A stretch of DNA of 64,000 bases from Candidatus Eremiobacter antarcticus. Lineage in GTDB: Bacteria > Vulcanimicrobiota > Vulcanimicrobiia > Eremiobacterales > Eremiobacteraceae. A model generated the notes under the pieces. That model ran no database searches. It was not told where the DNA came from and worked only from the letters and a program-made list of their open reading frames with translations. Of the stretch, positions 3,201 to 47,390 are shown one piece after another (position 1 is the first letter of the stretch; each line of letters opens with the position of its first letter). The translations under genes were made by a program, and so were the position numbers. Where the stretch lies: assembly GCA_003244105.1 (NCBI GenBank), contig QHBK01000017.1:6907-70906 (forward strand), given 5' to 3'.

Positions 3201-3287
3201 GGAGCGCGACGAGGCGGATTTGCGCGATGCGCTCCTGCCGGCGCTCGCCTTATGTGATGGGCGCGACGTGCGAGATTTCGGCTTCAT
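204..3287 (-). CDS. ppdK: pyruvate, phosphate dikinase (PPDK); 1027-aa ORF including a ~134-aa basic low-complexity N-terminal extension (conventional start would be M135 at 2885)
   Basis: Full-length PPDK similarity from MTYTFEEGDATMRDLLGGKGSGLAEMTRIGLPVPPGFTVTTEVC through GGETNPLLVSVRSGARVSMPGMMDTVLNLGLN, the phospho-His domain GGATSHAAVVARGMGKPAVVG and the C-terminal PEP-utilizing TIM barrel. The upstream 134 codons keep high GC3 and have a GGGAGAG motif before ATG 3287. Confidence 0.93.
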   Translation of the reverse strand: MKPKSRTSRPSHKASAGRSASRKSASSRSGKPQPRPSSAKKPSAGAARAHSPSRTQAAVRPAGKAAQGKPAEENGKPQATAAQIPADNGSVDGVPMATIPQMPNMDVGPMPALPKPKKAVPRRPEPPAKTTLGKMTYTFEEGDATMRDLLGGKGSGLAEMTRIGLPVPPGFTVTTEVCRRYLELGRQFSPGLDEELRRRTAELERKTGKEFGGETNPLLVSVRSGARVSMPGMMDTVLNLGLNNRTCNALIVLTKNDKFAWDAYRRFVQMFATVVLGMKRDPFDEVVKRYVAKARVASESDLTALAFRNMTSEFKALVRHHTKKDFPEDVYVQLRMAVEAVFGSWNSKRAIEYRRYERIPDWWGTAVNVVTMVFGNMGDDSGTGVAFTRNPSTGEKSLYGEFLQNAQGEDVVSGSRTPVKISVLEKHQPKIYKQFVEMAVKLERHYRDMQDIEFTVERGRLYILQCRSGKRSAAAAVQIAADMVKEHVIGREEAIMRIDPGSLQALLHAQIDEKDKKAPLTKGLNAAPGAASGIVVFDPDLAVEMKRQNRRCILVRPMTTPDDVQGMIAAEGILTSQGGATSHAAVVARGMGKPAVVGCESVLIDLRMRQFTVKGEVVNEGDMITVDGTTGLVYLGELRMQAARLSPQFGHVLKWADEFKRLGVYANADTPEDAIKARDFGAEGIGLCRTEHMFMQTERLPVVQEMILAETPDSRRKCLEQLLPMQRDDFQGIFRAMKGMPVTVRLLDPPLHEFLPSLEDLLVEVTELRMSKGDASLLSQKERLLRRVRVLHESNPMLGLRVCRLGIVYPEIYQMQVRAIMEAAVELKKEKIDVRPLIMIPGVGLVTEMKALRDLVTNEAERILKAAALKVAYQVGTMIELPRACLVAHRIAEHAEFFSFGTNDLTQTVFGYSRDDAEGSFIPVYLDRKILREDPFQVIDQDGVGEMMRMAMERGRTSRPDMKIGICGEHGGDPTSVQYCHDIKLDYVSCSPFRVPVARLAAAQAVLKDRAKQQPQQPGAAGKVDQD

Positions 3288-3425
3288 TCTCTCTCCCGTG
3301 AAGGCGCACCGGAGCTAAAACGCCGATCCGGCCGTCCCAGAAGACGCTGGACAGGAGCTCCGAACGCAAAGAGTGCGGACTATATATTTGGATGCGGGAC
3401 AGGGCCGGCCCTCTACAACCGGACG

Positions 3426-4769
3426 TCAGCGGGCGACTGAGTCGAGGACGGCGGTATCGTCAGGCTCGATCGCGTGTTTGAGGTAGCTAGCCAAGCGGTC
3501 GACGGAAATGCGCTTCTGCTCTTTGGAGTCCCGCTCGCGCACGGTCACATCCTGGCGATCCAAACTCTCGTAGTCGACGGTCACGCACAGCGGCGTGCCG
3601 ATCTCGTCCTGGCGGTAGTAGCGCTTGCCGACGTTCCCGGAGTCATCGAACACCGTGCGCAAGGAGGGACGCAGCGAGCGTTCGATCCTCACCGCCATCT
3701 CCACGATGTCAGGCTTGTTGCGCACCAGCGGAAACACGGCCGTCTTATAGGGAGCGAGGCGCGGGTGCAGGTGAAGAACCGTCCGATCCGCTTCTTTCTC
3801 GTAGGCGTCCAGCAAGAACACCAGGCACGCCCGATCGACACCCAGCGACGGCTCGATGACCGCCGGCAAAAACTTCTCCTTCGACTCCTCGTCGAAAAAC
3901 GACAGGTCCTTGCCACTGGCATCGACGTGCCGTTGCAGATCGAACGATGCGCGGTGGGCGATGCCTTCGAGTTCGCCCCAACCGAACGGGAAATCATATT
4001 CCAGGTCGGTCGTCGCGCGGCTGTAGTGAGCCAAGTCGGCGCCGCTGTACACGTGCCTGCGCAGCCTGCTGGGTTGGATGCCGAGCCCGAGGAACCAGTT
4101 GTGCCGCTGCTCCACCCAGTAGTCGAACCAGCGCATCCCTTCGCTTTCGGGCTGCACGGGAACGAAGAACTCGAGTTCCATCTGCTCGAACTCGCGCGAC
4201 CGGAAAATGAAATTGCCCGGCGTGATCTCGTTGCGGAAAGCCTTGCCGATCTGCGCCACTCCGAAGGGCGGCTTCTTGCGGCCTGTCTGATAGATCGACT
4301 TGAAGTCCACGAAGATGCCCTGAGCCGTTTCGGGCCGCAGGTATGCCACGGATGAGGCGTCTTCCATCGCGCCGATGTAGGTCTTGAACATCATGTGAAA
4401 AGCTCGCGGCTGCGTCAGCGTCGCGTTGCCGCAGGACGGGCAGCGCTCGCCGCTCAGCTCGTCGGCGCGGAAGCGCTTCTTGCAGGTGCGGCAGTCCACC
4501 ATGAGGTCATGGAAGTGCTCCAAGTGACCGGAAGCGCGCCACACGTCAGGAGACATCAGGATGGAGGTGTCCACCCCAACCACGTCATCGCGCAGCTCCA
4601 CCATGTGCCTCCACCAGGCGGCGCGCACGTTGCGTTTGAGCTCCACGCCCACGGGCCCGTAATCCCACGCGCCGTTGACGCCGCCGTAGATCTCGCTCGA
4701 GGGAAAGATAAAACCGCGGCGCTTTGCAAGCGCCACGACTTCATCCATGCTCGGCTTCGGGCGGACCAT
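3426..4769 (-). CDS. glyQS: glycine--tRNA ligase, class II dimeric type
   Basis: MDEVVALAKRRGFIFPSSEIYGGVNGAWDYGPVGVELKRNV... and the C-terminal anticodon-binding domain are typical of alpha2 GlyRS. The track ORF (615 aa) extends upstream over the neighbouring gene. The real start is taken as ATG 4769 (MVRPKPSMDEV), which overlaps the stop of the upstream permease (ATGTGA); ATG 4745 is an alternative. Confidence 0.9.
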   Translation of the reverse strand: MVRPKPSMDEVVALAKRRGFIFPSSEIYGGVNGAWDYGPVGVELKRNVRAAWWRHMVELRDDVVGVDTSILMSPDVWRASGHLEHFHDLMVDCRTCKKRFRADELSGERCPSCGNATLTQPRAFHMMFKTYIGAMEDASSVAYLRPETAQGIFVDFKSIYQTGRKKPPFGVAQIGKAFRNEITPGNFIFRSREFEQMELEFFVPVQPESEGMRWFDYWVEQRHNWFLGLGIQPSRLRRHVYSGADLAHYSRATTDLEYDFPFGWGELEGIAHRASFDLQRHVDASGKDLSFFDEESKEKFLPAVIEPSLGVDRACLVFLLDAYEKEADRTVLHLHPRLAPYKTAVFPLVRNKPDIVEMAVRIERSLRPSLRTVFDDSGNVGKRYYRQDEIGTPLCVTVDYESLDRQDVTVRERDSKEQKRISVDRLASYLKHAIEPDDTAVLDSVAR

Positions 4770-33944: not shown

Positions 33945-35378
33945 ATGAGGCAGCGACCGTCTGCGCAAGAGCGCGCAGCAGCGTGCGGAATCGCCGGGCT
34001 CCTCTTGTGCGTTGCCCTTGATTCATCGCCCGCGGCGGTCCGCGCCGAGGCGATGCCCGCGCCTAGCCCCGGTCCTTCGATGACGCTGAAGCAAGCCGTC
34101 GATTTCGCGCTCGCGCACAACCCGTCCATCGTTCAGGCGCAGGCGCAAGCGATCGCCGCGGCGGCGCTGCTGACCCGCAACCGTTCCGGGCAGCTTCCGC
34201 AGGTGGCGGCCAACGCCCAGTCGCTGCTGCAGCGCCAGAGCGCCAACAATGCAGGGACGTTCGCTCAGTTCGGACTGCAGCCGACGGCGAATTTCTCGCA
34301 GAACACGAGCCAATTGCTGGGCACAGCCAATGTGATCAATTTCACTTCGACCTTGGAAGCGCGCCAAGCGAAGCGGTCCTACGATGCCGCCGTGCAGAAC
34401 GTGCGGCTGACACGCCAACAGACGACGCTGGCCGTGGAGAGCGGCTACTATGCGCTCGTGCAAGACGCCGACCTTGTCAAGCTGGCAAACGAAGACCTCG
34501 CCTACCAGCGCACCCTGCGCGACATCGCAGACGCAAATTTTCGCGCCGGCAAAGTGGCCGGCATCGACAGGCTCAAGGCCCAGGTGCAGCTCACGTCAAG
34601 CCAGCAGCGCCTGGCGTCCGCACAAGCGGACGTCGACGATGCCCGTCAGAACCTCGCGCAGCTGATCGGCGCGCAGCCGGCGCAAGGCTTCCTTCTGCCC
34701 ACGACCGTCGAGCTGCCGGTCTTGCCGTCTCTCGATCGAGCGGGGCTCGAGACGCTCGCGCTTTCCCAGCGGCCCGAGGTCGCGATCGCGCAAGCCAACG
34801 TGGACAACGCGCGTTACGCCAATGCCCTCGTCGACGCGCCGAACCGGCCGGTCGTGCAGCTGAGCGGCGGCTGGGGCAATCAGACGTCGCCCACGGCCAA
34901 CGCTTTGGCATTCGACCAATGCACGCTCGCGAACCAGAATCTGCCGCTTGCGGTGGCGCCGCTGAATTGCTCGCCGGGCGCCTCGCACTTCTACAACGTC
35001 AGCCTGTCGTCGACGTGGAGCTTGCCACTGCTGGATTGGGGCACGGTGCATGCGGCCCATCTGAGCGCCAGAGCCACCATCGACTCCAACCAGGCCAACT
35101 TGGATGCGGCTCGCAGGCAAGCCGTCGTCGATGTGGATGAGGCCCTGCGGCGCGTCGAAGTCCAGCGCCAAAACCTCGCGCTGGCCGGCGCCAACGCCGA
35201 TATCGCTAAGCAAGTGGCCCAGACGTCTCAAGTGCAGTACAAAGTCGGTCTGATCGGCCAGATCGAAGTGACAGCAGCGCAACAGACGTATTTGCAGGCA
35301 GCCAGGGACTATCTGATCGCGCAGATCGGCTACGTGTTGTCGGCGGAAAAACTGAAGCTGGCGACGGGCTCGCTGTGA
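33945..35378 (+). CDS. TolC-like outer membrane efflux protein (OEP family)
   Basis: Signal peptide, then two-repeat alpha-helical/beta-barrel OEP architecture (LKQAVDFALAHNPSIVQAQAQ..., coiled-coil heptads, LTAAQQTYLQAARDYLIAQIGY). Confidence 0.85.
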   Translation: MRQRPSAQERAAACGIAGLLLCVALDSSPAAVRAEAMPAPSPGPSMTLKQAVDFALAHNPSIVQAQAQAIAAAALLTRNRSGQLPQVAANAQSLLQRQSANNAGTFAQFGLQPTANFSQNTSQLLGTANVINFTSTLEARQAKRSYDAAVQNVRLTRQQTTLAVESGYYALVQDADLVKLANEDLAYQRTLRDIADANFRAGKVAGIDRLKAQVQLTSSQQRLASAQADVDDARQNLAQLIGAQPAQGFLLPTTVELPVLPSLDRAGLETLALSQRPEVAIAQANVDNARYANALVDAPNRPVVQLSGGWGNQTSPTANALAFDQCTLANQNLPLAVAPLNCSPGASHFYNVSLSSTWSLPLLDWGTVHAAHLSARATIDSNQANLDAARRQAVVDVDEALRRVEVQRQNLALAGANADIAKQVAQTSQVQYKVGLIGQIEVTAAQQTYLQAARDYLIAQIGYVLSAEKLKLATGSL

Positions 35379-35413
35379 CCGGTTTCCGGTAGATCGCAAG
35401 GACGCATACGCGC

Positions 35414-36967
35414 ATGCCGAAATGGCTTCTGATCCTTCTCGTGGCCGCAGGCATCGCCCTGACGATCCTTGTCGGCGCACTCGCGCACCGCGGCGGCCAG
35501 GCGCAAAGCGTGGGCACGATGACGGTCCACCCCAGCACGCTGGTCGTAAAGCTGCCGGAGAACGGCATCGTCTCGCTGCCCCAGACCGCCACGATCGCCG
35601 CGCAATCCACCGGGCCGATCACCTGGATCGGCGTGCATGAGGGCCAACGCGTGAGCCCGGGCGATCTCTTGATGCGGTTGAACGACCGGCAGATCTCGGC
35701 CACCGTCAGCCGCGACAGCGCGGCGCTGGCGCAAGCCGAAGCCGGCCTGCGAAAAGCGGAGCAGACCGCGGCGGTCTCGCCGAACACGAACGTTCAGAAC
35801 GTCGCGCAAGCCCAAGAAACGCTGCTGGCCGCGCAAGCAAAGCTCAAGGCCGACATCAACGGCAAACGAGCAGGGCAGCTGTCGGGGACCGTATCGGGCG
35901 CAGGCTTCGGCTTGAACGGCCAGTCGCAACTGGTCGAGCAGCAGCAAGCGCTTTCCGTGGCCTCGTCGCAACTCCGAACGGCAAAAGAGCGCTACGACGG
36001 CGACAAGGAGCTGTACCGGATCAACGCGTTGGCGCGCCAGCAGCTCGACGCCGACCGAGCTGCCTACGAGCAGGCGCTTTCCGCGAAATTAGCAGCGCAG
36101 CGTCAATACGATCTGACCCTGCGGCAGCTGCGCGATAACTCCGGACAGCTCGATAGCCAGATCGAGGCCGACCGTCATGCCGTCGAAGGCGCCCGAGCGG
36201 CTCTGTCTTCCGCCCAGCTGCAGTCGAAGCAAGACACAGCGGCGGTCGACTTGCGCTCGGCTCAAGCCGGAGTCGACTCGGCGCGCGCGCAGCTCCAGTA
36301 CGACGAGGAGATGCTGGCCGACACTCAGGTGAGGGCGCCGTTCGACGGCGTCATCCAGACGATCGGAAGCACCCCATCATCCAGCGGCGCCTCGAGCGTG
36401 CGCCTGTCGGTCGGCGATGCGGTGCAGCCGGGTCAAGCGCTGTTCACGATCGCGGGCGCCGGTCCCATGATCGTAAGGGCGCAAGTGGACGAGCAAGACA
36501 TCATCAACGTGCACGTCGGGCAGCACGCGTTCATATCGGGCGAAGACTTTCCCGGACGGACGATCGTGGGAACGGTCGTGCGCATCGCTCCGGTGGTGAT
36601 CGCTCAGAACCAGGGGACGACGTCTGCCAAGAACGTGGAGACGACGATCGCTCTCCCCCGCACCTATCCGTTCCTGCGCGACGGCATGTCCGCCGACGTC
36701 GACGTCATCACGGGCAAAACGGCGCACGCGTTGACCGTTCCAAGCTCCGCGGTGGTGAACGAGGGCAAAAAGCGCTTCGTCTTCGTGGCCAAAGACGGCA
36801 AAGCGCGCAAGACGCCGGTCCGGCTTGGCCTCGCCGGCGACACCGACGTGGTGGCCATATCCGGCCTGCACGCAGGCGACGCGGTGATCTTGAGCCCGGC
36901 CGGCCTCAAGGACGGGCAGAAAGTGTCGGCTTCCGCGGCGACGCCGGCGCCCTCACCGAGCGTCTGA
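35414..36967 (+). CDS. periplasmic adaptor / membrane fusion protein (MacA/HlyD family) with unusually long coiled-coil hairpin
   Basis: N-terminal TM anchor, biotinyl-lipoyl-like half (GIVSLPQTATIAAQSTGPITWIGVHEGQRVSPGDLLMRL), ~250 aa of coiled coil, second lipoyl half (VRAPFDGVIQTIG), beta-barrel and membrane-proximal domain. Confidence 0.88.
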   Translation: MPKWLLILLVAAGIALTILVGALAHRGGQAQSVGTMTVHPSTLVVKLPENGIVSLPQTATIAAQSTGPITWIGVHEGQRVSPGDLLMRLNDRQISATVSRDSAALAQAEAGLRKAEQTAAVSPNTNVQNVAQAQETLLAAQAKLKADINGKRAGQLSGTVSGAGFGLNGQSQLVEQQQALSVASSQLRTAKERYDGDKELYRINALARQQLDADRAAYEQALSAKLAAQRQYDLTLRQLRDNSGQLDSQIEADRHAVEGARAALSSAQLQSKQDTAAVDLRSAQAGVDSARAQLQYDEEMLADTQVRAPFDGVIQTIGSTPSSSGASSVRLSVGDAVQPGQALFTIAGAGPMIVRAQVDEQDIINVHVGQHAFISGEDFPGRTIVGTVVRIAPVVIAQNQGTTSAKNVETTIALPRTYPFLRDGMSADVDVITGKTAHALTVPSSAVVNEGKKRFVFVAKDGKARKTPVRLGLAGDTDVVAISGLHAGDAVILSPAGLKDGQKVSASAATPAPSPSV

Positions 36968-36977
36968 GCTACCCGTC

Positions 36978-38177
36978 ATGAAATTCTGGGAGCTGTTCGG
37001 CGTCGCTGTACAGACGCTGTGGACGCACCGCCTGCGTTCTGCGCTCACGATGATCGGCATCGTCATCGGAACAGCTGCGGTCATCGCCATCTTCGGCCTC
37101 GGCCAAAGCGCTTCGTCGGCCATCGGCGGGCTCTTGGGGATGTTCGGCGATCAAGGCATCTACATTCTTCCGGATCAAACAGCGGCTCGCGCCGGGCAGA
37201 CGCACCTCGAATGGCATGACGTCGCGGCGCTGCGAGACGGCTGTACGCGCTGTGCCAAGGTCTTTCCATATTATAGCGGGTCCTATACCATCCGCAGAGG
37301 GCACACGCGCGACGCCTTTGGGCTCTCGTCCGACACCGATTACATCACGGACAAGCTGCCGATGGCCGAGGGCCGGCGCTTCACCGCAGAGGACGTCGCA
37401 GGGGCGCGACCGGTGTGCGATCTGCTGTGGGATGCGAAGAAAAAGCTGTTCGGAGACGGACCCGCCGTCGGCCAGTTCGTGCGCATCGCCGGGCGGCGCT
37501 TCTTGGTGGTGGGCGTGTACAGCAACATCAGCGCCGGTGTTTTCAACGCGTTTGTCGGCAGCGGCGAGACGATTCTGATCCCGTATACCACCTACCGCAA
37601 TCTCGGCGGCGCAACGATGTTGGGGCTGCAGATCTATGCGCAAGCCGGCGCTGCGTCCGGGCAGGTGATCGATCAGGCCGAGGGCATCCTCAAGCGCATG
37701 CACGGCCAGCGCGTGCACTACCAATCGGTCGACACGAGCCAACAAGGCTCGGTTTTTCTCAACGTCGTCGCATATGTCGCGGCCGGCGTCTCAGCGATCG
37801 GCGCCATCGCGCTCGTGGTCGGGGGCATCGGCGTCATGAACATCATGATGGTCTCCGTGATCGAACGCACCCGCGAGATCGGCATCCGCAAGGCGATCGG
37901 CGCCACGCGCAGCGACATCTTGCTGCAGTTCCTCACGGAGTCGATCGCGATCACGCTGTTGGGGGGCGCCATCGGAACGCTGTTGGGGATCGCGGCTGCG
38001 CTCCTCGGAAATGCGCTCTTGATCTCCCAGTTCGCGGGCGCGAGCGCAGCCATCCACTGGGTCCCCATCCTAGCCATGGCGCTGACATCTTCGGTCGCCA
38101 TCGGGCTGTTCTTCGGCACCTATCCGGCGGTGCGCGCCTCCCGCTTGTCGCCCATCGACTGTTTGCGCCATGAATGA
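36978..38177 (+). CDS. ABC transporter permease, MacB/FtsX family (permease 1)
   Basis: N-terminal TM helix, large periplasmic MacB_PCD-like domain, C-terminal FtsX 3-TM bundle (GGIGVMNIMMVSVIERTREIGIRKAIGATRSDILLQFLTES). Confidence 0.88.
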   Translation: MKFWELFGVAVQTLWTHRLRSALTMIGIVIGTAAVIAIFGLGQSASSAIGGLLGMFGDQGIYILPDQTAARAGQTHLEWHDVAALRDGCTRCAKVFPYYSGSYTIRRGHTRDAFGLSSDTDYITDKLPMAEGRRFTAEDVAGARPVCDLLWDAKKKLFGDGPAVGQFVRIAGRRFLVVGVYSNISAGVFNAFVGSGETILIPYTTYRNLGGATMLGLQIYAQAGAASGQVIDQAEGILKRMHGQRVHYQSVDTSQQGSVFLNVVAYVAAGVSAIGAIALVVGGIGVMNIMMVSVIERTREIGIRKAIGATRSDILLQFLTESIAITLLGGAIGTLLGIAAALLGNALLISQFAGASAAIHWVPILAMALTSSVAIGLFFGTYPAVRASRLSPIDCLRHE

Positions 38178-39403
38178 CGGAAAGCGGCAACTCGGTGGTT
38201 CATAAAACTGCCGAATTTCTGCGTCAGGCGATCGAGACGCTGTGGAACAACCGATTCCGGTCGTTGCTGACAATGCTCGGGCTGATCATCGGCGTCGGCT
38301 CGGTCATCGCCATTCTCGCGGTGGGCGATGCCACAAATCGTTCAGTGCAAAACCTGCTCTCGCAATACTCGCAAGCGTCGAGTTTCGTGGTCGCCAAGCA
38401 GACGCAGCCTGATTTCCAAAACGCGGCCATCCGCTACACGGACGCCCGAGCAGTGGCCAAGGCCGTGCCGCAGGTCAAAGCGGTCATCCCCATCATGGTG
38501 ATCCCCATGACGACGACCGTGCGGCACCGCACCAAGACCATCACCGTCATCACGGCCGGCGCGGGCGTCGGCTTTGACGCAAGCGCGCTTGAGGCTGGGC
38601 GCCGCTTCACTCCGCTGGAAGTCGCCGCGCACCGGCACGTCTGCATCTTGTCGTACGACGCGCGCAACACCATCTTCTCCCCCGGCGCCGCGGTCACCGG
38701 AAGCAGCGTGCGGCTGAACGGAAGCTATTACACCGTGGTCGGAGTCCAAGCCAAACCGCTCAACGCGGGGCTCCTGCAAAGCGACAGCGGTTCGGAGACG
38801 GTCACGGTGCCCTACACGCTCATTCCAGAGTTCGGTTATTCTTACGTGGCGGGACTGTCCATCGTGAGCGATCCGGAGCATGTCACGCAAGACGGCAATG
38901 CGGCCATCGACGCGCTCAAGAAAATCCACGGTCAGCGCTCGCAGTACCAAGAGCGCGACATCAAGACACTCAACGAGGGCATCGCCAAAGTCTTCACCGT
39001 GTTGACCGGGGTCATCGGCGTCATCGCCGGCATCTCCCTTTTGGTGGGCGGGGTCGGCATCATGAACATCATGCTCGTGTCGGTGACCGAGCGGACGCGC
39101 GAGATCGGCATTCGTAAGGCGGTGGGCGCCGCGCGCACGGATATTCTGCTGCAGTTCTTGAGCGAAGCTTTGGTCATGTGCTTGGCAGGCGGGCTCATAG
39201 GCCTGTGCGGCGGCGTCGGCCTCGCGGAGCTTGTCATCCACACGCTCATCATCAAGCTCACGGGAACGGTCGTCGCATTTTCTTGGGCGCCCATCGTGAC
39301 GATCGCGGTGGTCTTTTCCGCCGGCGTGGCGCTCGTGTTCGGCACGTATCCGGCCGTGCGCGCATCCTACCTCGATCCCATCGAGTGCTTGCGCTTTGAG
39401 TGA
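38174..39403 (+). CDS. ABC transporter permease, MacB/FtsX family (permease 2, distinct paralog)
   Basis: Same architecture as permease 1 but divergent in sequence (GGVGIMNIMLVSVTERTREIGIRKAVGAARTDILLQFLSEA). Start overlaps the previous stop (ATGA). Confidence 0.88.
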   Translation: MTESGNSVVHKTAEFLRQAIETLWNNRFRSLLTMLGLIIGVGSVIAILAVGDATNRSVQNLLSQYSQASSFVVAKQTQPDFQNAAIRYTDARAVAKAVPQVKAVIPIMVIPMTTTVRHRTKTITVITAGAGVGFDASALEAGRRFTPLEVAAHRHVCILSYDARNTIFSPGAAVTGSSVRLNGSYYTVVGVQAKPLNAGLLQSDSGSETVTVPYTLIPEFGYSYVAGLSIVSDPEHVTQDGNAAIDALKKIHGQRSQYQERDIKTLNEGIAKVFTVLTGVIGVIAGISLLVGGVGIMNIMLVSVTERTREIGIRKAVGAARTDILLQFLSEALVMCLAGGLIGLCGGVGLAELVIHTLIIKLTGTVVAFSWAPIVTIAVVFSAGVALVFGTYPAVRASYLDPIECLRFE

Positions 39404-40145
39404 GACGCTCGCGCAGCCGCTGTCCGCTCGGGGCATCCCTTCTGTGCAGGAGCGCGCCGTCATCGACATCACCGACATGACCAAGGTCTACGAGCTCGGC
39501 GACATCAAGGTACCGGCGCTGCGGGGAGTTTCGTTCCGCATCGCGGCCGGCGACTATGTCGCCATCATGGGTCCGTCCGGCTCGGGCAAGTCGACGTTGA
39601 TGAACATCATCGGCTGCCTCGATCAGCCGACCAGCGGGATCTACCGTCTGGACGGCATCGACGTCGCAAACTTGGACGATCGGGAGCTGGCTGCCATCCG
39701 CCTGAGCAAGCTCGGCTTCGTGTTCCAGGGTTTCAACCTGCTCGCGCGCACCACGGCGCTGCGCAACGTCGCCCTGCCCTTGTTCTACGCCGGCGACCGC
39801 GACCGAGACAAAAAGGCTCAACGGGTGCTGGAGAAAGTGGGCTTGGGCGACCGGGTGCAGCATCGCCCGAACGAGCTCTCGGGAGGTCAGCAGCAGCGGG
39901 TGGCCATCGCGCGAGCGCTTGTCAATGACCCCGCGGTGTTGCTGGCGGACGAGCCGACCGGCAACTTGGACTCGGCGACCGCCGAGGACATCATGGCGCT
40001 GTTCGCGGACCTCAACAGCGAAGGCCACACCATCATCATCGTGACGCACGACGACGACGTGGCAAGCCACGCGCGCCGCATCATCCGTTTGCGAGACGGG
40101 CTGGTCATAAGCGATGAGAGCGGCGCGAGAAATCGTCCCCTGTAG
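39396..40145 (+). CDS. ABC transporter ATP-binding protein, MacB/LolD-type
   Basis: Walker A GPSGSGKST, Q-loop, signature LSGGQQQRVAIARAL, Walker B LLADEPTGNLD, H-loop THDDD. Overlaps the upstream permease by 8 nt. Confidence 0.92.
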   Translation: MSETLAQPLSARGIPSVQERAVIDITDMTKVYELGDIKVPALRGVSFRIAAGDYVAIMGPSGSGKSTLMNIIGCLDQPTSGIYRLDGIDVANLDDRELAAIRLSKLGFVFQGFNLLARTTALRNVALPLFYAGDRDRDKKAQRVLEKVGLGDRVQHRPNELSGGQQQRVAIARALVNDPAVLLADEPTGNLDSATAEDIMALFADLNSEGHTIIIVTHDDDVASHARRIIRLRDGLVISDESGARNRPL

Positions 40146-40175
40146 GGCGTTCCGACCTCTGCCGCAACCCCAATC

Positions 40176-40209
40176 TTGACGGTTAGCACTCTCGGTGTTA
40201 AACTGCTAA
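40176..40209 (+). promoter_or_regulatory. CIRCE-like inverted repeat (HrcA-operator type) overlapping a candidate promoter upstream of htrA
   Basis: TTAGCACTC-tcggtgtta-AACTGCTAA at 40183-40209 versus consensus TTAGCACTC-N9-GAGTGCTAA (left half 9/9, right half 7/9). TTGACG at 40176-40181 and TAAACT at ~40198-40203 could serve as -35/-10. Confidence 0.55.
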
Positions 40210-40404
40210 CGCAGTTACGGCTATCGCGTTCACGCGCTTCGGGACAAGCCGGATTCCCCGTCTTTTGGCAACAATTCGGTTCGCTCGCGGGTAAGTATGT
40301 ACGTGTCGATCCAGTCGCAGTTCGTGCGGGCTACCTGCGCGCAGCATCGCCATGGGATAACGGCCTCCCATCCGCGGCCGGCCTTTACAGGAGTGAAACT
40401 AAAG

Positions 40405-41625
40405 ATGAATTCCCGAACTCGCACGTCGCTCGGCTTCGCGCTCATGGGACTGCTCGGAGTGCTGATCGGCGCATTCGTCGTGTCGCTTTTGGCCCCCAAG
40501 TTTTGGACGAGTAAAGAAGCGGCCGCCAACCTCATACCGAACGCCGCCTCGGCGGCGCCGATGCCGCTGAGCGGCGACAGTGATTTCGAACGGCGCATCG
40601 TCGCCGTCGTGAAGCGCACCGAGCCGTCCGTGGTCTTGATCAAGGCGACCGTCCACGGTCAGCAGCAGATCTACAACCCGTTCCAAAACGACCCGTTCTT
40701 CCGCCAGTTCTTCGGCGACCAAGTCCCCAACCAAGCCCAGCCCTTCACCGCAAAGGCGTCGGGCTCGGGATTCGTCTACCACCGGGATGGCGATACCGCA
40801 TACATCGCCACCAACGCGCACGTGGTCTATCAGGCCGACCACATCCAGGTCCTGTTATGGACGGGCCGTCAGTTGGATGCGCAAGTCGTGGGAGCGGACA
40901 ACAGCACCGACTTGGCGCTGCTGAAGATCCACGGCGCCAACCTGCCGCCCGCATTGCCGGCCGGCAACTCGAGCGCGCTGGAGCAAGGACAATTCGTGCT
41001 GGCCATCGGCGAGCCTGAATCATTCCAAAATTCGGTGAGCTTGGGCATCGTATCTGCGCTCCATCGCAGCAACATCACGGCCACCGGAGGCCCCGGCTTT
41101 CCGGCGTTTCATTATGAAGACATGATCCAGATCACGACGCCGATCAACCCCGGGAACTCCGGCGGCCCGCTGATCACGACTCGCGGTCAGGTCGTCGGCA
41201 TCAATGCGGTTGTCGCCGCGCAGGCGCAGGCGATCGGCTTCTCTATCCCCATCAACGCAGCGCAGCCGGTGCTGGCCGAGATTCAGCAGACAGGCCACGG
41301 CATCCATGTCGCGCACGCCTACATCGGCATCCAGATGCGCGCGCTCGACAAGCAACTCGCCAGCTACTTGGGCTACTCGGGATCGCAAGGCATCGTCGTC
41401 GTGAGCGTGCAGCCGGGCAGTCCCGCCGAAAAGGCAGGCCTGCAGATGCGCGACATCGTCTTGGAGCTCAATCACAAGAAGCTGAGCGATCCGGACGAGG
41501 TGCGCGCGGCCATCGCCAAGCTGAAGGTCGGCGACAAGGTCACGCTGCTGGTGTGGCGCGACGGAGGCTTGCAGCCGTACGCCGTCACGCTCGGCGACCG
41601 GCCCGATACGCTGCCGCAAGGTTAA
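40405..41625 (+). CDS. htrA: HtrA/DegP-family periplasmic serine protease with one PDZ domain
   Basis: Catalytic triad contexts TNAHVV / DLALLKI / GNSGGPL, and C-terminal PDZ (GIVVVSVQPGSPAEKAGLQMRDIVLELN). N-terminal TM/signal anchor. AGGAG lies 7 nt before ATG 40405. Confidence 0.9.
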   Translation: MNSRTRTSLGFALMGLLGVLIGAFVVSLLAPKFWTSKEAAANLIPNAASAAPMPLSGDSDFERRIVAVVKRTEPSVVLIKATVHGQQQIYNPFQNDPFFRQFFGDQVPNQAQPFTAKASGSGFVYHRDGDTAYIATNAHVVYQADHIQVLLWTGRQLDAQVVGADNSTDLALLKIHGANLPPALPAGNSSALEQGQFVLAIGEPESFQNSVSLGIVSALHRSNITATGGPGFPAFHYEDMIQITTPINPGNSGGPLITTRGQVVGINAVVAAQAQAIGFSIPINAAQPVLAEIQQTGHGIHVAHAYIGIQMRALDKQLASYLGYSGSQGIVVVSVQPGSPAEKAGLQMRDIVLELNHKKLSDPDEVRAAIAKLKVGDKVTLLVWRDGGLQPYAVTLGDRPDTLPQG

Positions 41626-41673
41626 ACGCGCTCTAGGCGAAGTCAGCGACAGACTCTACAAAATCGTATATTG

Positions 41674-41696
41674 GCTCGCCGGCACAGCCGGCGAGC
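41674..41696 (+). promoter_or_regulatory. perfect 10-3-10 inverted repeat GCTCGCCGGC-aca-GCCGGCGAGC in the dnaK leader, just downstream of a TATATT -10-like hexamer
   Basis: Read directly at 41674-41696, 23 nt upstream of the dnaK ATG. Could be an operator overlapping +1 or an attenuator hairpin. Confidence 0.4.
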
Positions 41697-41718
41697 GTTC
41701 TCGGAGGAAAGAAACACC

Positions 41719-43605
41719 ATGGCAAAAGTCGTCGGGATCGACCTCGGCACCACCAACTCCGTCGTCGCTTTCATGGAAGGCACCACGCCGACGGTCATCA
41801 CGAACGCAGAGGGCAGCCGCCTCACCCCGTCGGTGGTGGCGATCACCAAAGGCGGTGACCGTCTGGTCGGCCAGCTCGCGAAACGGCAGGCGATCACCAA
41901 TCCGGACCGCACGATCTCGTCGATCAAGCGCTATATGGGCAGCGATCACAGAGTCACGATCGACGGCAAGTCGTACACGCCGCAAGAGATCTCGGCGATG
42001 ATCCTGCAAAAGCTGGCCGCGGACGCGAGCACGTATCTTGGCGAGAAAGTCACCAAGGCGGTTATCACGACGCCCGCATACTTCAACGATGCGCAGCGCC
42101 AGGCCACCAAGGACGCCGGACGCATCGCTGGCTTAGACGTGTTGCGCATCATCAACGAGCCGACGGCGGCTGCGCTCGCGTACGGCCTCGACAAGAAGGG
42201 CAACGAGACGATCCTCGTCTGGGACTTGGGCGGCGGCACGTTCGATGTCTCGGTTCTCGAGGTCGGCGACGGCGTCTTCGAGGTGAAGTCCACCAATGGC
42301 GACACGCACTTGGGCGGCGACGACTACGACAAGCGCATCGTCGACTGGCTCGTGTCCGAGTTCAAAAAAGAGCAGGGCATCGATCTTTCAAGCGACCGCC
42401 AAGCCCTGCAGCGCTTGACCGAGGCGGCCGAAAAAGCCAAGGTAGAGCTGTCCTCCATGGTCCAGACGTCGATCAATCTGCCGTTCGTGACGGCCGATCA
42501 GAACGGCCCGAAGCACCTGGACTACACGCTGACCCGCGCAAACTTCGAGCAGCTGACGAACGATCTCACCGAGCGCTGCAGAAAGCCGTTCGAAAACGCA
42601 ATCGCGGACGCGAAGCTCACGGTGGACGACATCAAAGAGGTCGTCTTGGTCGGCGGTGCCACGCGCATGCCGATCATCCAAGAACTGGTCAAGTCGCTCA
42701 CGCACAAGGATCCTCACCAGGGCGTCAACCCCGACGAAGTGGTGGCGGTCGGCGCTGCCATCCAAGCCGGCGTGCTGTCGGGCGAGGTTCGAGACGTCGT
42801 GCTGCTGGACGTCACGCCGCTGTCCATGGGTCTTGAGACGCTGGGCGGAGTCATGACCAAGCTGATCGAGCGGAACACGACCATCCCGACGCGCAAGTCG
42901 CAGACGTTCACCACCGCCGACGATGGCCAGACCTCGGTCGACATCCACGTGCTGCAAGGCGAGCGGGAGATGGCGCCCGATAACAAAACGCTGGGCCGCT
43001 TCCGGCTGGAAGGCCTCCCGCCCGCGCCGCGCGGCGTGCCGCAGATCGAAGTGACGTTCGACATCGACGCCAACGGCATCACGCACGTGAGCGCCAAGGA
43101 CCTGGGCACCGGCAAGGAACAGCGCATCACGATCACGTCGTCGAGCAATCTCAACAAGGAAGAGGTCGACCGCATGGTGCGCGAGGCCGAATCGCATTCC
43201 GCCGAGGACAAGCGCAAGCGCGAAGAGGCCGAGACGCGCAACGAAGCGCTGCGGCTTCAATATTCCGCGGAGAACACGCTCAAGGAGGTTGGAGACAAGG
43301 TCTCCGGCGCCGACAAAGCTGAGGTCGAGAAAGCACTGGACGACGTGCGCTCGCTGCTCAAGGCCGGCAGCCTCGAAGAGCTCAAACGCGCTACCAGCAG
43401 GCTGCAAGAGGCTTCCTACAAGCTGGCCCAAGTGGTCTATCAGAAGACCGGTCAGGCGGCCGGCGCGGAAGCGGGCGCTCCCACGGACGGCGCGGCCACA
43501 AACGGCGCAACGGGCGCGCAGGAACCCGAAGGCGCGGGCGCCGCGGCGGCCAGCGGCGGCTCAGCCGATGGCGATGTCATCGACGCCGAATTCAAGGAGA
43601 GATAG
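41719..43605 (+). CDS. dnaK: molecular chaperone DnaK (Hsp70)
   Basis: [18 protein letters not shown]..., [10 protein letters not shown], and the C-terminal substrate-binding and lid domains. GGAGG lies 9 nt upstream of ATG 41719. Confidence 0.97.
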
Positions 43606-43620
43606 AGGCTGCGCTGGGGG

Positions 43621-44181
43621 ATGCCGGAGTCCGAAGACCTCGACTCTGCTGCGAGTGCGCAAGTTCCGGGAGTCGACGAGACGCCTGCCGATGGGCAGGC
43701 GTCGACCGATTCTGAGGCGCTGCGCGCCGAGTTAGAGAAGAGCAAGAATCAAGCGGAAGAACAGCGCCAGCTGTACGTGCGCGCGCTCGCTGATTTCGAC
43801 AACTACAAGCGGCGTATGGATCGGGTGATGGCTGACCGCTCGGCAGAAGGCAGGCGCGACGTGCTCAAGCGCCTGTTGCCGGTGCTCGACAATCTCGAGC
43901 GCGCGGCGCAGTACCGCCAAGCGGGCACGCCAGCGGAGCAGCTCGTGGACGGGCTGCTCGCCACCGTCAAACAGTTCATGACCGTGCTCGAAGCCGAGGG
44001 CGTGCAGCCCATCGACTTGATGGGAAAGCCGTTCGATCCCAAGCTCGGAGAGGCGGTCGGCACGCGCCAGGTTCCGGATACGCCAGATGACGTCGTCCTC
44101 GACGAGGCACGGCGCGGCTATATGATCGGACAAGACGTCTTGCGTCCGGCGCAAGTCATCGTTTCCAAGTCCGCGCAGTAG
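43621..44181 (+). CDS. grpE: nucleotide exchange factor GrpE
   Basis: 186 aa; coiled-coil N-terminal region, LRALADFDNYKRRMDR, and C-terminal beta-sheet arm GKPFDPKLGEAVG. Confidence 0.9.
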   Translation: MPESEDLDSAASAQVPGVDETPADGQASTDSEALRAELEKSKNQAEEQRQLYVRALADFDNYKRRMDRVMADRSAEGRRDVLKRLLPVLDNLERAAQYRQAGTPAEQLVDGLLATVKQFMTVLEAEGVQPIDLMGKPFDPKLGEAVGTRQVPDTPDDVVLDEARRGYMIGQDVLRPAQVIVSKSAQ

Positions 44182-44193
44182 CGGGCCGCTCGC

Positions 44194-45222
44194 ATGCCCG
44201 TCCAATACAAAGATTATTACAAGATCCTCGGCGTAGGGAAGAGCGCCTCCACCAAAGACATCAAGGCGGCGTATCGTAAGCTCGCGCGCCAGTGGCATCC
44301 CGACGTCAATCCCACCCGCAAAAAAGAGGCCGAAGACAAGTTCAAGGACATCGCTGAAGCCTATGAGGTCCTCAGCGACGCCGAAAAGCGGCGCATGTAC
44401 GACACGCTGGGCAACGACTGGCAGCAGCGCGCCGCGCAAAACGCGCAAGGCGGATACTACCGCAGCCAGCCGGGCGCGCAGCGTGCCGACGGTGGCGGCG
44501 CGCAATTCGACTTCGGTGATCTAGGCGACAGCAGTTTTTCCGAGTTCTTCCAGACGTTCTTCGGCAACATCGGGCGCGGCGGCAACGCGACTGCCGGGGG
44601 CGGGCGGCGTGGCGCGCGCGGCTCCGACGTCGAAAGCGTTTTGGAGCTTCCCTTGCGCGAGGCATTTAGCGGCGGTCACCGCACGCTGACGATGCAAGTC
44701 GAGACCACCTGCCCGCGCTGTCACGGCACCGGCAACGAAAAAGGCAAGCTGTGCCATCAGTGCCGCGGCACGGGCACCATTCCGAGCACAAAATCGCTGG
44801 ACGTCACGATTCCGGCAGGCGTGAGAGACGGTCAGCGCATCCGGCTCGCAGGCCAAGGCGCTCCCGGCATGGGCGGCGGCTCCGCCGGCGATTTGTACTT
44901 GATCGTGCGCATCGCACCGGACCCGCGCTTTGCGCGCAAGGGCGACGATTTGCACATCGAGCAGGCGGTGAGCATCTACGACCTCGTGCTGGGCGGCGAA
45001 GTGGTCGTGCCGACGATGACCGGCCAGATCGACCTCAAAGTGCCTGCCGGTTCTCAGAACGGCAGAACGCTGCGCATTCCGGGAAAGGGCATGCCTCGTC
45101 TGGGCAAAGGCGCCGGCCAAGGCGACCTCTACGTCAAGCTGGTCGCTCAAGTGCCCGCCGCGGTCAGCGACCGCGAGCGCGAGCTTTTCCAAGAGCTTGC
45201 GAAGATGGCCAAGACGCGATGA
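44194..45222 (+). CDS. dnaJ: DnaJ-class co-chaperone with J-domain, Gly-rich linker and a reduced Cys-rich domain (only two CxxCxGxG repeats)
   Basis: J-domain [34 protein letters not shown] (HPD), G/F-like region, [22 protein letters not shown], and C-terminal peptide-binding domains. Confidence 0.88.
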
Positions 45223-45268
45223 TGCGCAGACTTTCCACACCAACAGGCAACCGAAGAAGCAAGGTGGG

Positions 45269-45541
45269 ATGATGGATACGGACGTCGTCGACCAACTGTA
45301 TGCGATCACCGCGGTCGTGGCGCAATTCGACGTGCCCTCGGAGACACTCGTGCGCTACGAACGCGCCGGTTTGCTGCGGCCTCGGCTCGTCAACGACGTG
45401 CGTTTCTATTCCGAAGCGGACATCGAGCGTCTTTCGACCATCCGCCGCCTGACCGACATCTGCGGCATCAACCTGGCAGGCGTCGATGTCGTGCTTCGCT
45501 TGCTTGAAGAGATACGAACGCTGCAGCGTCAGCTGGAATAG
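45269..45541 (+). CDS. hspR: MerR-family heat-shock repressor HspR
   Basis: 90 aa; HTH LYAITAVVAQFDVPSETLVRYERAGLLRP and the GINLAG motif shared with HspR. It is the last gene of the dnaK-grpE-dnaJ operon, as in Streptomyces/Helicobacter. Confidence 0.75.
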   Translation: MMDTDVVDQLYAITAVVAQFDVPSETLVRYERAGLLRPRLVNDVRFYSEADIERLSTIRRLTDICGINLAGVDVVLRLLEEIRTLQRQLE

Positions 45542-45606
45542 GAACGGCCCCGGGCGGCGTGCGCCCTACCACGCGTTCTAGGACGCGCCGACGTCAGTCT
45601 TTAAGC

Positions 45607-46776
45607 ATGCGGCCCGTGCGCAAACAGCCCCAGCCCAAGAATACCGCGCGCGAGCTTGCCATTCTCAACGCGATCGCGGAAGAGCTCAACAGCGCCGCTG
45701 GCGTCCGTCAGGCTCTGGAACGGACGCTAGCGCGCGTGACCAAGCTCTTGGGGTTGCGCGCAGGCTGGGTCTGGCTGCTCGACCACGAGACGCAAGCGTT
45801 CTATCACGCCGCGTCGCAGCACTTGCCGCCGTATTTGGAAGAGCCGGTCCGCATGGCCGGCAGCTGGTGCACCTGCATCGACGAGTTCAGGGCTGGAGCG
45901 CTCACGCCCAAGAACATCGACGTCATCGAGTGCAGCCGTCTGCAACCCGCGGTCAAGAGAAAAGCCACGCACCTCACGCAAGGGCTGCGCTATCACGCCA
46001 GCATTCCTTTGTATTCTCAAGACAAGCCGGTCGGCATCATGAACGTCACCGGGCCGGCGTGGCGCAAACTGTCGGCTGACGAGCTGCGCGTGCTGTCGAC
46101 GATCGGCTACTATGTCGGCGTGACCGTGGAGCGCGCGAGGCTGTCTGCCGACGCTGCCAAAGCCGCACGGTCCGAAGAACGCGCGCGCATCGCCCGCGAG
46201 ATCCATGACACGCTCGCTCAAGGCTTGACCGCAATCGCGTTGCAAGTCGAAGGCGCCTTGCACCAGCTGAAAGCGGATCCCGAAAAGGCGCGCCACCGGC
46301 TGGAGCGCGCTTTGGCGGTGTCGCGTGAGAGCTTGGAAGAAGCTCGCCGGTCGGTGCTGGGATTGCGCGGTTCGCCGCTGGGCGGCCAACCGTTGGCGGA
46401 GGCGCTGAGCGGCCTTGGCCGATCGTTCACTTCAGAGACCGGAGTGCGCGTGAACGTCCTTGCTCGCGGCCGGGCAGCCTTGCCTCCCGAGGTAGAGGCC
46501 GAGTTGTTCCGCATCGCGGGCGAGGCGCTGGCCAACGTTCGCAAGCACGCGCGCGCGAAATCCGTAGCGATATCGCTGCGTGCAGGACCGAAGGCTGTGA
46601 CCATGTCGCTTGCCGATGACGGGCGGGGCATTGCCATGCCGCGCCGCTCGTCACCCGGGCACGGCATCGTGGGGATGACCGAGCGCGCTCGTCTGGTGGG
46701 CGGAGCGCTGCGCATACAATCGCGCGCGGGAAAGGGGACGCGGGTGCACGTGACCGTGCCGCTCGACGGCGCATGA
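45607..46776 (+). CDS. sensor histidine kinase with GAF sensory domain and NarL-type (HisKA_3) dimerisation/phosphoacceptor plus HATPase_c
   Basis: GAF-like N-terminal half (LGLRAGWVWLLDHE...YHASIPLYSQDKPVGIMNV), H-box ERARIAREIHDTLAQGL, and ATPase G-boxes (DDGRGI, GHGIVGMTERA). Confidence 0.85.
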   Translation: MRPVRKQPQPKNTARELAILNAIAEELNSAAGVRQALERTLARVTKLLGLRAGWVWLLDHETQAFYHAASQHLPPYLEEPVRMAGSWCTCIDEFRAGALTPKNIDVIECSRLQPAVKRKATHLTQGLRYHASIPLYSQDKPVGIMNVTGPAWRKLSADELRVLSTIGYYVGVTVERARLSADAAKAARSEERARIAREIHDTLAQGLTAIALQVEGALHQLKADPEKARHRLERALAVSRESLEEARRSVLGLRGSPLGGQPLAEALSGLGRSFTSETGVRVNVLARGRAALPPEVEAELFRIAGEALANVRKHARAKSVAISLRAGPKAVTMSLADDGRGIAMPRRSSPGHGIVGMTERARLVGGALRIQSRAGKGTRVHVTVPLDGA

Positions 46777-47390
46777 TCCGCATCGTCATCGTCGACGATC
46801 ATCCGGTCGTGCGGGAAGGCTTGATCTCGATCCTCGAGGACGAACCGGATTTTGAGGTGACCGGCGCTTTCGGCTCGGCCGAGGACATGCTGGCAGATGC
46901 GACGGCGCTGGCGGCGGATGTCGTTTTGATGGATCTCGAGCTTCCCGACATGGACGGCGTCCAGGCCATCGACCGCCTCAAGGTTGCGTCGCCGAAGGCC
47001 AGAGTGATCGTCTTCACCGCCTACGACGCCGGCGAGAAGATACTGGGAGCGGTCAAGGCCGGAGCTCGCGGCTACATGCTCAAGGGGGCGCCGTCGCAAG
47101 AGATCACGCACGCCATACGCCAGGTGCACGCCGGCGGGTCGCATCTCGAAACGCGCATCGCGAGCAAGATCATGAGCGCCGCTGCGGGTTCTGCGAATGA
47201 CGACCTGAGCCGGCGCGAGTCCGAAGTGCTCAAGCTTATCGGAAAGGGCCTCTCCAACAAACAGATCGCCAGCAGCTTGTCGATCGCCGAACGGACGGTC
47301 AAGTTCCACGTCGCTTCCATCTTCAGGAAGCTCGGCGCGGAGAACAGGGCGCAGGCGGTCGCCCTGGCGAGCCGTGAGCACCTCATCTGA
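46773..47390 (+). CDS. response regulator, NarL/LuxR family
   Basis: Receiver domain IRIVIVDDHPVVREG...VLMDLELPDMDG and C-terminal LuxR HTH LSRRESEVLKLIGKGLSNKQIASSLSIAERTVKFHVASIFRKL. Overlaps the kinase stop (ATGA). Confidence 0.9.
   Translation: MIRIVIVDDHPVVREGLISILEDEPDFEVTGAFGSAEDMLADATALAADVVLMDLELPDMDGVQAIDRLKVASPKARVIVFTAYDAGEKILGAVKAGARGYMLKGAPSQEITHAIRQVHAGGSHLETRIASKIMSAAAGSANDDLSRRESEVLKLIGKGLSNKQIASSLSIAERTVKFHVASIFRKLGAENRAQAVALASREHLI

Follow-up and report, generated by a model that had tools for sequence, protein, structure and literature searches.

In the HrcA regulon, exemplified by dnaK and groE of Bacillus subtilis, chaperone promoters carry the inverted repeat that controls chaperone expression (CIRCE), TTAGCACTC-N9-GAGTGCTAA, which overlaps core promoter elements. 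In the HspR-controlled operons of Streptomyces and Mycobacterium the genes follow the order dnaK-grpE-dnaJ-hspR, and the operator is the HspR-associated inverted repeat (HAIR), CTTGAGT-N7-ACTCAAG. Both types of regulator act together on chaperone operons of Helicobacter pylori and Campylobacter jejuni, where both operators have been footprinted and HrcA is placed over the core promoter (PMC6032397, PMC7464140). We have analysed a 64-kb stretch of DNA (referred to below as the window; G+C content 63%) from Candidatus Eremiobacter antarcticus, a member of the phylum Vulcanimicrobiota, which is also named Eremiobacterota or WPS-2. In this window an Hsp70 operon of the order htrA-dnaK-grpE-dnaJ-merR (positions 40176-45541, forward strand) has its promoter overlaid by a predicted CIRCE operator.

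The operon shares with the B. subtilis system the CIRCE repeat and its overlap with the core promoter. It differs in having no hrcA gene, in placing htrA first and in the order dnaK-grpE-dnaJ as against hrcA-grpE-dnaK-dnaJ, and the right arm of its CIRCE doubles as a −10 box at the cost of one or two consensus positions. With the operons of Streptomyces and Mycobacterium it has in common the order of the last four genes, and their HspRs are of the family nearest to its terminal protein; however, CIRCE takes the place of HAIR, and the terminal protein scores below the HspR cut-off and has neither the HPQTLR helix nor the C-terminal tail. The two regulator types would meet here as in H. pylori and C. 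jejuni, but only CIRCE is detectable, and hspR stands in a different operon context. A small MerR-fold gene also follows directly after a DnaJ-type gene in the CbpA-CbpM pair of Escherichia coli and the DnaJ-DafA pair of Thermus thermophilus, in which the small proteins, encoded beside DnaJ-type genes, bind and restrain chaperones rather than DNA (PMC3125180, PMC3727329). The window protein is in sequence much closer to HspR than to these modulators, and it keeps RYERxGLL, the DNA-binding signature of MerR proteins.

The leader of htrA adds a further likeness. Genes of the htrA/degP type are classical targets of the extracytoplasmic function (ECF) sigma factor sigma-E, and their promoters in E. 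coli and other bacteria have a −35 box of the GGAAC type, with a short −10 box ∼16–17 nt away. In the operon studied here, an htrA-family gene likewise lies behind two boxes of this kind, 16–17 nt apart; this candidate promoter differs from those of sigma-E in its GGTA −10 box and in its position within the leader of a promoter under putative CIRCE control. The locus is an arrangement of known parts which is new as an arrangement, and no single component of it is new.

The reading that we favour, with a probability of about 65%, is that this is the principal Hsp70 operon of the organism, led by the gene of a membrane-anchored HtrA. It would be transcribed from a promoter controlled by HrcA through CIRCE (P1) and from a second, ECF-like promoter (P2), a hairpin would uncouple the protease gene from the chaperone genes, and an HspR-derived protein would provide feedback.

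The predicted CIRCE operator and promoter P1

A promoter scan predicted the sigma-70-type promoter P1 at 40176-40204 of the forward strand. Its −35 box, TTGACG (40176-40181), is separated by 17 nt from the −10 box, TAAACT (40199-40204), which is preceded by TG. The predicted CIRCE operator, TTAGCACTC-N9-AACTGCTAA, extends from 40183 to 40209 on the same strand and deviates from the consensus at two positions. It is the sole match with up to three mismatches in the 64 kb, and none of 100 shuffles gave a match. The operator occupies the spacer of P1, overlaps its −10 box and extends to the likely transcription start region; HrcA operators can overlap core promoters (PMC6032397). A first, sequence-only reading of this DNA had described a CIRCE-like element upstream of htrA, and this is borne out: the element is unique in the window and was found again in eight further lineages of the phylum.

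These lineages were reached mostly through homologues of the terminal MerR-family protein (L033/34, which is Candidatus Tumulicola, L036, L037, L038, L164, L165 and L167/168). The eighth, the Vulcanimicrobiota metagenome-assembled genome L004, was the sole close relative among species-representative genomes in a scan for HtrA, a scan in which the peptide patterns were too strict. The arrangement TTGACG-N1-2-TTAGCACTC-N9-TAGTGCTAA upstream of htrA was common to the relatives, all eight of them having one mismatch each. When the upstream regions were aligned, the −35 box together with CIRCE made up the only long run of invariant columns; the rest of the htrA leader was ∼50–57% identical across the lineages, which is near random. 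The −35 box and the positions of the TG and of TAnnnT were invariant in 9/9 lineages (window included).

The conserved TG and TAnAnT, which lie within the spacer and the right arm of CIRCE, together form an extended −10 box, TGnTATAGT, the −10 hexamer being TATAGT in the relatives and TAAACT in the window. It is by deviating from GAGTGCTAA that the right arm makes a −10 box, and this explains why, in the whole phylum, its first base is T where the consensus has G. Neither the left arm nor the GTGCTAA of the right arm has a promoter role, yet both are invariant, and such conservation calls for a sequence-specific binding protein. To our knowledge, CIRCE is known only as the operator of HrcA. 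By this comparison of the lineages, a sigma-70-type promoter bears the strong footprint of an operator of the HrcA type, which makes HrcA-type control of the operon a prediction well supported by the conservation of the operator.

We also looked at CIRCE beside a −35 box in metagenomes. The scan returned 120 loci (L040-L159) from Acidobacteriota, Gemmatimonadota, Chloroflexota, Armatimonadota, Limnochordia and others, and none from Eremiobacterota. CIRCE directly after a TTGAC −35 box drives groES, groEL and hrcA in the first four of these phyla and in Limnochordia-like Firmicutes. This placement was common in several phyla and was also seen before hsp20 and sigma-factor-like genes; a recurrent class from soil, located before groES, had the form TTGAC-N3-TTAGCACTC-ATCGTCTAC-AAGTGCTAA.

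The sequence-only reading had further described a weaker HAIR-like pattern in the same region and had proposed dual control by HrcA and HspR. The letters are indeed present at 40175-40194 (CTTGACG-N6-ACTCTCG), but they differ from the HAIR consensus at four positions, their spacer is of 6 and not 7 nt, and equally good matches were found inside coding regions, so that the pattern is at chance level. A search allowing up to three mismatches found no HAIR near the operon and two elsewhere in the window, against 1.4 expected, and with spacers of 5–9 nt the matches were likewise at chance level. As the pattern is composed of the −35 hexamer and the left arm of CIRCE, its conserved letters are already explained. 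Apart from CIRCE, the cross-lineage alignment contained no conserved inverted repeat either upstream of htrA or between htrA and dnaK. Strong conservation upstream is limited to two blocks, the −35 box with CIRCE and the ECF-like motif described below. Dual control is, therefore, left unsupported, there being no HAIR and no sequence evidence of HspR acting on the operon. The operon has no canonical HspR-HAIR circuit.

Genes of the operon and its HspR-like terminal protein

Profile matches upheld the gene order htrA-dnaK-grpE-dnaJ-MerR given by the sequence-only reading; all five genes are on the forward strand. htrA (40405-41625) encodes a serine protease of the HtrA/DegP family, with an N-terminal membrane anchor, a trypsin-like domain containing GNSGGP and one PDZ domain (Pfam Trypsin_2, 1e-31; PDZ_2, 3e-17). 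Its score against TIGR02037, 309 bits, is below the cut-off of 416, in keeping with the single PDZ domain. An identical HtrA with the same start called is present in the NCBI assemblies GCA_051000875.1 and GCA_036842045.1. Next come dnaK (Hsp70; 41719-43605; NF001413, 964.7 bits with a cut-off of 648), grpE (43621-44181; Pfam GrpE, 4e-40) and dnaJ (44194-45222), whose product matches Pfam DnaJ and DnaJ_C, and DnaJ_CXXCXGXG in part only. This DnaJ has two CxxCxGxG motifs instead of the usual four, a half zinc finger that suffices for one zinc centre; it scored 342 bits against TIGR02349, just under the cut-off of 377, and its resemblance to CbpA amounts to 225 bits. The last gene (45269-45541) encodes a divergent HspR-like protein of the MerR family, 90 aa in length (89 aa if the start is at 45272), which matches MerR_1 and MerR_2 and contains the GINLAG motif. 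A protein identical to it is recorded at NCBI under Candidatus Eremiobacter antarcticus.

The same order, with a merR gene of 87–90 aa at its end, was present in 8/8 readable Eremiobacterota lineages; in the ninth, L004, the contig stops within htrA. An operon beginning with htrA had been called unusual. This holds relative to model organisms, but within the phylum it is the rule. The stop codon of dnaJ and the start codon of merR frequently overlap (ATGA) in the relatives, and are separated by a gap of 46 nt in the window. Identity to the window across the lineages was 54–60% for HtrA (78% in L004), 49–63% for GrpE, 64–68% for DnaJ and 79–84% for DnaK. The terminal protein, with 75–84% identity between the lineages, is level with DnaK and far above HtrA, GrpE and DnaJ; judged by this conservation, it is under very strong purifying selection.

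The best named family for the terminal protein is HspR (NF047375), yet its score of 60.6 bits remains below the cut-off of 105. Against the CbpM model NF007617 it scored 15.8 bits, far from the cut-off of 138; on these two scores CbpM was ruled out as the primary assignment of the gene and was kept as a functional rival. In an exhaustive profile search the Eremiobacterota proteins formed a single cluster at 50% identity and the next matches, with 40–48% identity, were all HspRs. HspR models matched 65/65 members of an alignment made up of the terminal protein and 64 relatives from outside the phylum.

The terminal protein departs from HspR in three features, all fixed across the phylum. The recognition helix HPQTLRxYER, near-invariant in HspRs, is changed to (T/P)(P/S)ETLVRYER, the wing (PxRxxGNxRLY in HspRs) has lost one residue, and there is no C-terminal tail. 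The RYERxGLL motif of the MerR family and the wing arginine (R-F-Y) are retained. With Q replaced by E and R by V in the recognition helix, a HAIR-like target is not expected. The earlier naming of this gene as hspR, of the MerR family and with a GINLAG motif, was thus right as to family, motif, nearest relatives and position at the end of the operon; membership of HspR proper did not hold, in view of the cut-off and the altered helix. On the basis of these comparisons, the protein is a descendant of HspR with a re-specified surface.

Sequence searches of solved structures returned generic MerR DNA-binding domains and a weak, gap-free alignment with DafA (9dvi_S, E = 0.03). When the AlphaFold model (pLDDT 90) was compared by Foldseek, the GlnR/TnrA-DNA complexes gave TM-scores of 0.74–0.76 and CbpM bound to CbpA (3ucs) one of 0.72. 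Fold comparison was discarded as a discriminator, as DNA binders and modulators score too much alike. In profile comparisons, DafA and CbpM are matched better by canonical HspR than by the Eremiobacterota family, so that the Eremiobacterota protein shows no special closeness to these two.

Nor is it only in this phylum that htrA and hspR are associated, because a dnaJ-htrA-hspR arrangement with a canonical HspR exists in another, low-G+C lineage (L162, positions 1322-4169). The dnaJ of that operon has no zinc finger, the operon is divergent from hsp20, and its HspR is the canonical one closest to the Eremiobacterota protein. The promoter there is a perfect TTGACA-17-TATAAT, with the repeat ACTTGaTTGaCAAGT across the −35 box and without a consensus HAIR.

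Promoter candidate P2 and the htrA-dnaK spacer

The motif G(G/C)AAC-N16/17-GGTA is present in 9/9 htrA leaders (window, L004, L033, L036, L037, L038, L164, L165 and L167), 57–63 nt 3′ of the end of CIRCE and with 84–148 nt of leader after it. In the window this candidate ECF-sigma promoter, P2, lies at 40268-40293 on the forward strand and reads GCAAC(AATT)-N17-GGTA. It has the shape of an ECF promoter, namely, an AAC-containing −35 box with a T-rich continuation, a spacer of 16–17 nt and a short −10 box. A single shuffled leader contained the motif with a probability of 0.002–0.005. Three matches exist in the window on both strands taken together, the other two being within open reading frames (ORFs), and a somewhat more stringent version was confined, in all the Eremiobacterota DNA that was fetched, to sites before htrA.

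Also present in 9/9 leaders is a GGGAC(A/G) block, 15–22 nt upstream of the ECF-like motif and with no inverted partner; in the window it is GGGACA at 40241-40246 on the forward strand. Sigma-54 and MerR-type long-spacer readings of the leader motif were rejected by eye for misfit of the spacing. An Rfam scan of 39500-46500 detected no RNA thermometer or leader family, only two spurious eukaryotic matches, and no pairs were predicted in a consensus structure of the htrA leader, for which the alignment is poor.

The spacers between htrA and dnaK are short (61–161 nt), and in every lineage one to three stable G+C-rich hairpins are located just 3′ of htrA. Distant lineages have hairpins of unrelated sequence, and a T-run is missing after all of them. 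Sequence and folding showed the window hairpin (41674-41696, forward strand) to have a perfect 10-bp stem, GCTCGCCGGC-aca-GCCGGCGAGC, which likewise lacks a following T-run. The spacers also contain an A+T-rich stretch around CTACA, which follows the hairpins in the relatives and precedes the hairpin in the window. The promoter scan found no promoter-like site before dnaK. From this arrangement, co-transcription of htrA and dnaK appears plausible; it is unproven, as a stable hairpin separates the two genes.

The hairpins of L038 (6420-6526), L165 (3389-3549) and L167 (3355-3505) share cores such as GCGAGC-ATC-GCTCGC and GCAAGCGTTGCTTGC, with one duplicated in L167, and this suggests a dispersed palindromic repeat family.

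Proposed regulation and alternative readings

In the reading that we favour, HrcA encoded elsewhere in the genome would sit on CIRCE at normal temperature and block RNA polymerase, and under protein-folding stress its activity would be lost and the operon induced. Judging from its motif, P2, ∼60 nt downstream, would probably allow envelope stress to raise htrA independently. The hairpin or hairpins after htrA would most likely be a partial terminator or an element that stabilizes the RNA or protects its 3′-end, and may uncouple the amounts of the htrA and the dnaK-grpE-dnaJ-merR messages while still allowing read-through. The terminal MerR protein most likely serves feedback from the chaperone system, either as a repressor with a changed operator or as a binder of DnaJ or DnaK in the manner of CbpM and DafA. 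Of these two roles, we consider a DNA-binding repressor with a changed operator somewhat more likely than a pure chaperone modulator.

Several observations weigh against this reading. hrcA is not among the 40 ORFs of the window in a Pfam scan and was not found in the 10 kb past its right edge, and tblastn gave no match to it in the ∼230 kb of fetched Eremiobacterota DNA, a search whose queries (HrcA of B. subtilis and of Mycobacterium tuberculosis) recovered real HrcAs in other phyla; all these searches covered <3% of any one genome. The CIRCE copy of the window is the weakest and most deviant of the nine, both mismatches being in its right arm. The ECF-like motif was defined post hoc from the same sequences on which it was scored, GGTA is not a textbook ECF −10 box, and no ORF with Sigma70_r2 or Sigma70_r4, and no ECF sigma gene, was identified among the scanned ORFs of the window. 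Finally, the hairpin could be a full terminator, in which case dnaK would need its own promoter and CIRCE would control htrA only.

A protein search with the HrcA of L052, a Limnochordia-like lineage, as bait also brought up no hrcA from Eremiobacterota. The supplements of the paper on Vulcanimicrobium alpinus, a cultured relative, do not mention hrcA, and in the literature we found no paper linking Eremiobacterota with HrcA and none describing heat-shock regulation in this phylum. Owing to the conservation of the operator, we nevertheless judge it likely that hrcA is present elsewhere in the genome.

Who binds the operator, and whether HspR shares in the control, can be argued differently. 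It is highly improbable, in our estimate, that the phylum is without HrcA and that the CIRCE-like repeat is bound by some other factor, for example by the re-specified HspR-like protein between the −35 and −10 boxes. Such a factor would fit with the failure to see hrcA in any of the sequences read, with the location of the repeat in the promoter spacer, where MerR-type operators usually lie, and with a MerR recognition helix that differs from that of HspR. Against this, the repeats of the relatives agree with CIRCE at 17–18 of the 18 arm positions and have exactly the 9-nt spacing, features by which HrcA operators are recognized throughout bacteria, groES and hrcA of many other phyla are driven from sites of the same geometry, and the sequences read are the small part of each genome given above. 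We regard as quite unlikely that the operon is repressed directly by HrcA on CIRCE and also by HspR, as in Helicobacter and Campylobacter, with HspR acting either on the HAIR-like site, which overlaps the −35 box and the left arm of CIRCE, or within the spacer between htrA and dnaK. An HspR-derived gene closes the operon in every lineage, H. pylori and C. jejuni provide documented cases of chaperone operons controlled by HspR together with HrcA (PMC6032397, PMC7464140), beyond the actinobacteria an HspR operator can match HAIR poorly (the operon of L162, too, is without a consensus HAIR), and the letters CTTGACG-N6-ACTCTC are conserved in the relatives. However, the −35 box and the CIRCE arm account for those letters, a site with four mismatches and wrong spacing is equalled by matches within genes, the htrA-dnaK spacer has no conserved inverted repeat of fixed sequence, and the near-invariant Q and R of the HspR helix HPQTLR have given way to E and V.

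Two further alternatives concern the end of the operon and its first spacer. That the terminal protein no longer binds DNA and is a modulator of DnaJ (and DnaK) of the CbpM/DafA type, transcription being controlled by HrcA and the ECF-like promoter only, is a possibility to be taken seriously, if on balance an unlikely one. Its gene abuts or overlaps dnaJ, the zinc finger of DnaJ is reduced and DnaJ resembles CbpA. The protein itself is short and without a C-terminal tail, has a changed helix and a wing equal in length to that of DafA, with which it aligns without gaps, is about as similar in fold to CbpM as to the DNA-bound mini-MerRs, and is conserved along its whole length in the way of DnaK; CbpM and DafA are precedents (PMC3125180, PMC3727329). 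On the other hand, its HspR score is far above that for CbpM, it keeps RYERxGLL and the R-F-Y of the wing, both of which are lost in CbpM and DafA, and it is the canonical HspR profile that comes closer to these two proteins. Rather unlikely, too, is the alternative in which htrA is a unit of its own, ended by the hairpin as a tail-less factor-independent terminator, and dnaK-grpE-dnaJ-merR is transcribed from a weak promoter in the A+T-rich CTACAnAnTCG stretch, outside the control of CIRCE. Tail-less factor-independent terminators are common in high-G+C bacteria, stable hairpins come right after the htrA stop codon in all lineages, and most lineages have a short conserved, A+T-rich stretch resembling CTACA/TAnnnT before the ribosome-binding site of dnaK. 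Yet the hairpins have no T-run and no −35/−10 pair was detected, and since the order of A+T-rich stretch and hairpin in the window is the reverse of that in the relatives, the two do not make a fixed terminator-promoter unit. The linkage of the genes is also invariant across these short spacers, and separate transcription would leave dnaK without a recognizable heat-shock control element.

As for the origin of the operon, we think it doubtful that the Eremiobacterota rewired an actinobacterial-type dnaK-grpE-dnaJ-hspR operon by exchanging HAIR for CIRCE, placing htrA with its own ECF-type envelope-stress promoter in front and re-specifying the HspR descendant for a new operator or as a modulator of DnaJ or DnaK. 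If this were true, the descendant would stand midway in evolution between repressors of the HspR kind and modulators of the CbpM/DafA kind, and protein-folding stress of the cytoplasm and of the envelope would be integrated at one locus.

Should the HrcA-CIRCE reading with P1 and P2 be right, a poorly known, mostly uncultured phylum would run Hsp70 through the common HrcA-CIRCE switch in an operon of HspR-type layout, and would couple to it the gene of a periplasmic protease that has a separate promoter of the envelope-stress type. The locus would then be a clear case in nature of one regulator being swapped for another at a conserved operon, and its terminal protein a candidate link between HspR repressors and modulators such as CbpM and DafA. 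Its value is mainly comparative, the functional statements being drawn from conservation of sequence.

The surroundings of the operon vary in their conservation. Directly upstream, a complete efflux set of the MacB type (33945-40145) comprises two MacB/FtsX permeases with their ABC ATPase, a periplasmic adaptor and an outer-membrane factor. Its synteny extends to L033/34, L036 and L037 and in part to L165, and not to L038, L164 and L167/168. The 3′ side of the operon, at about 45616-47390, is occupied by a histidine kinase (GAF-HisKA_3) and a response regulator of the LuxR type in the lineage of the window only, and by other genes in the relatives.

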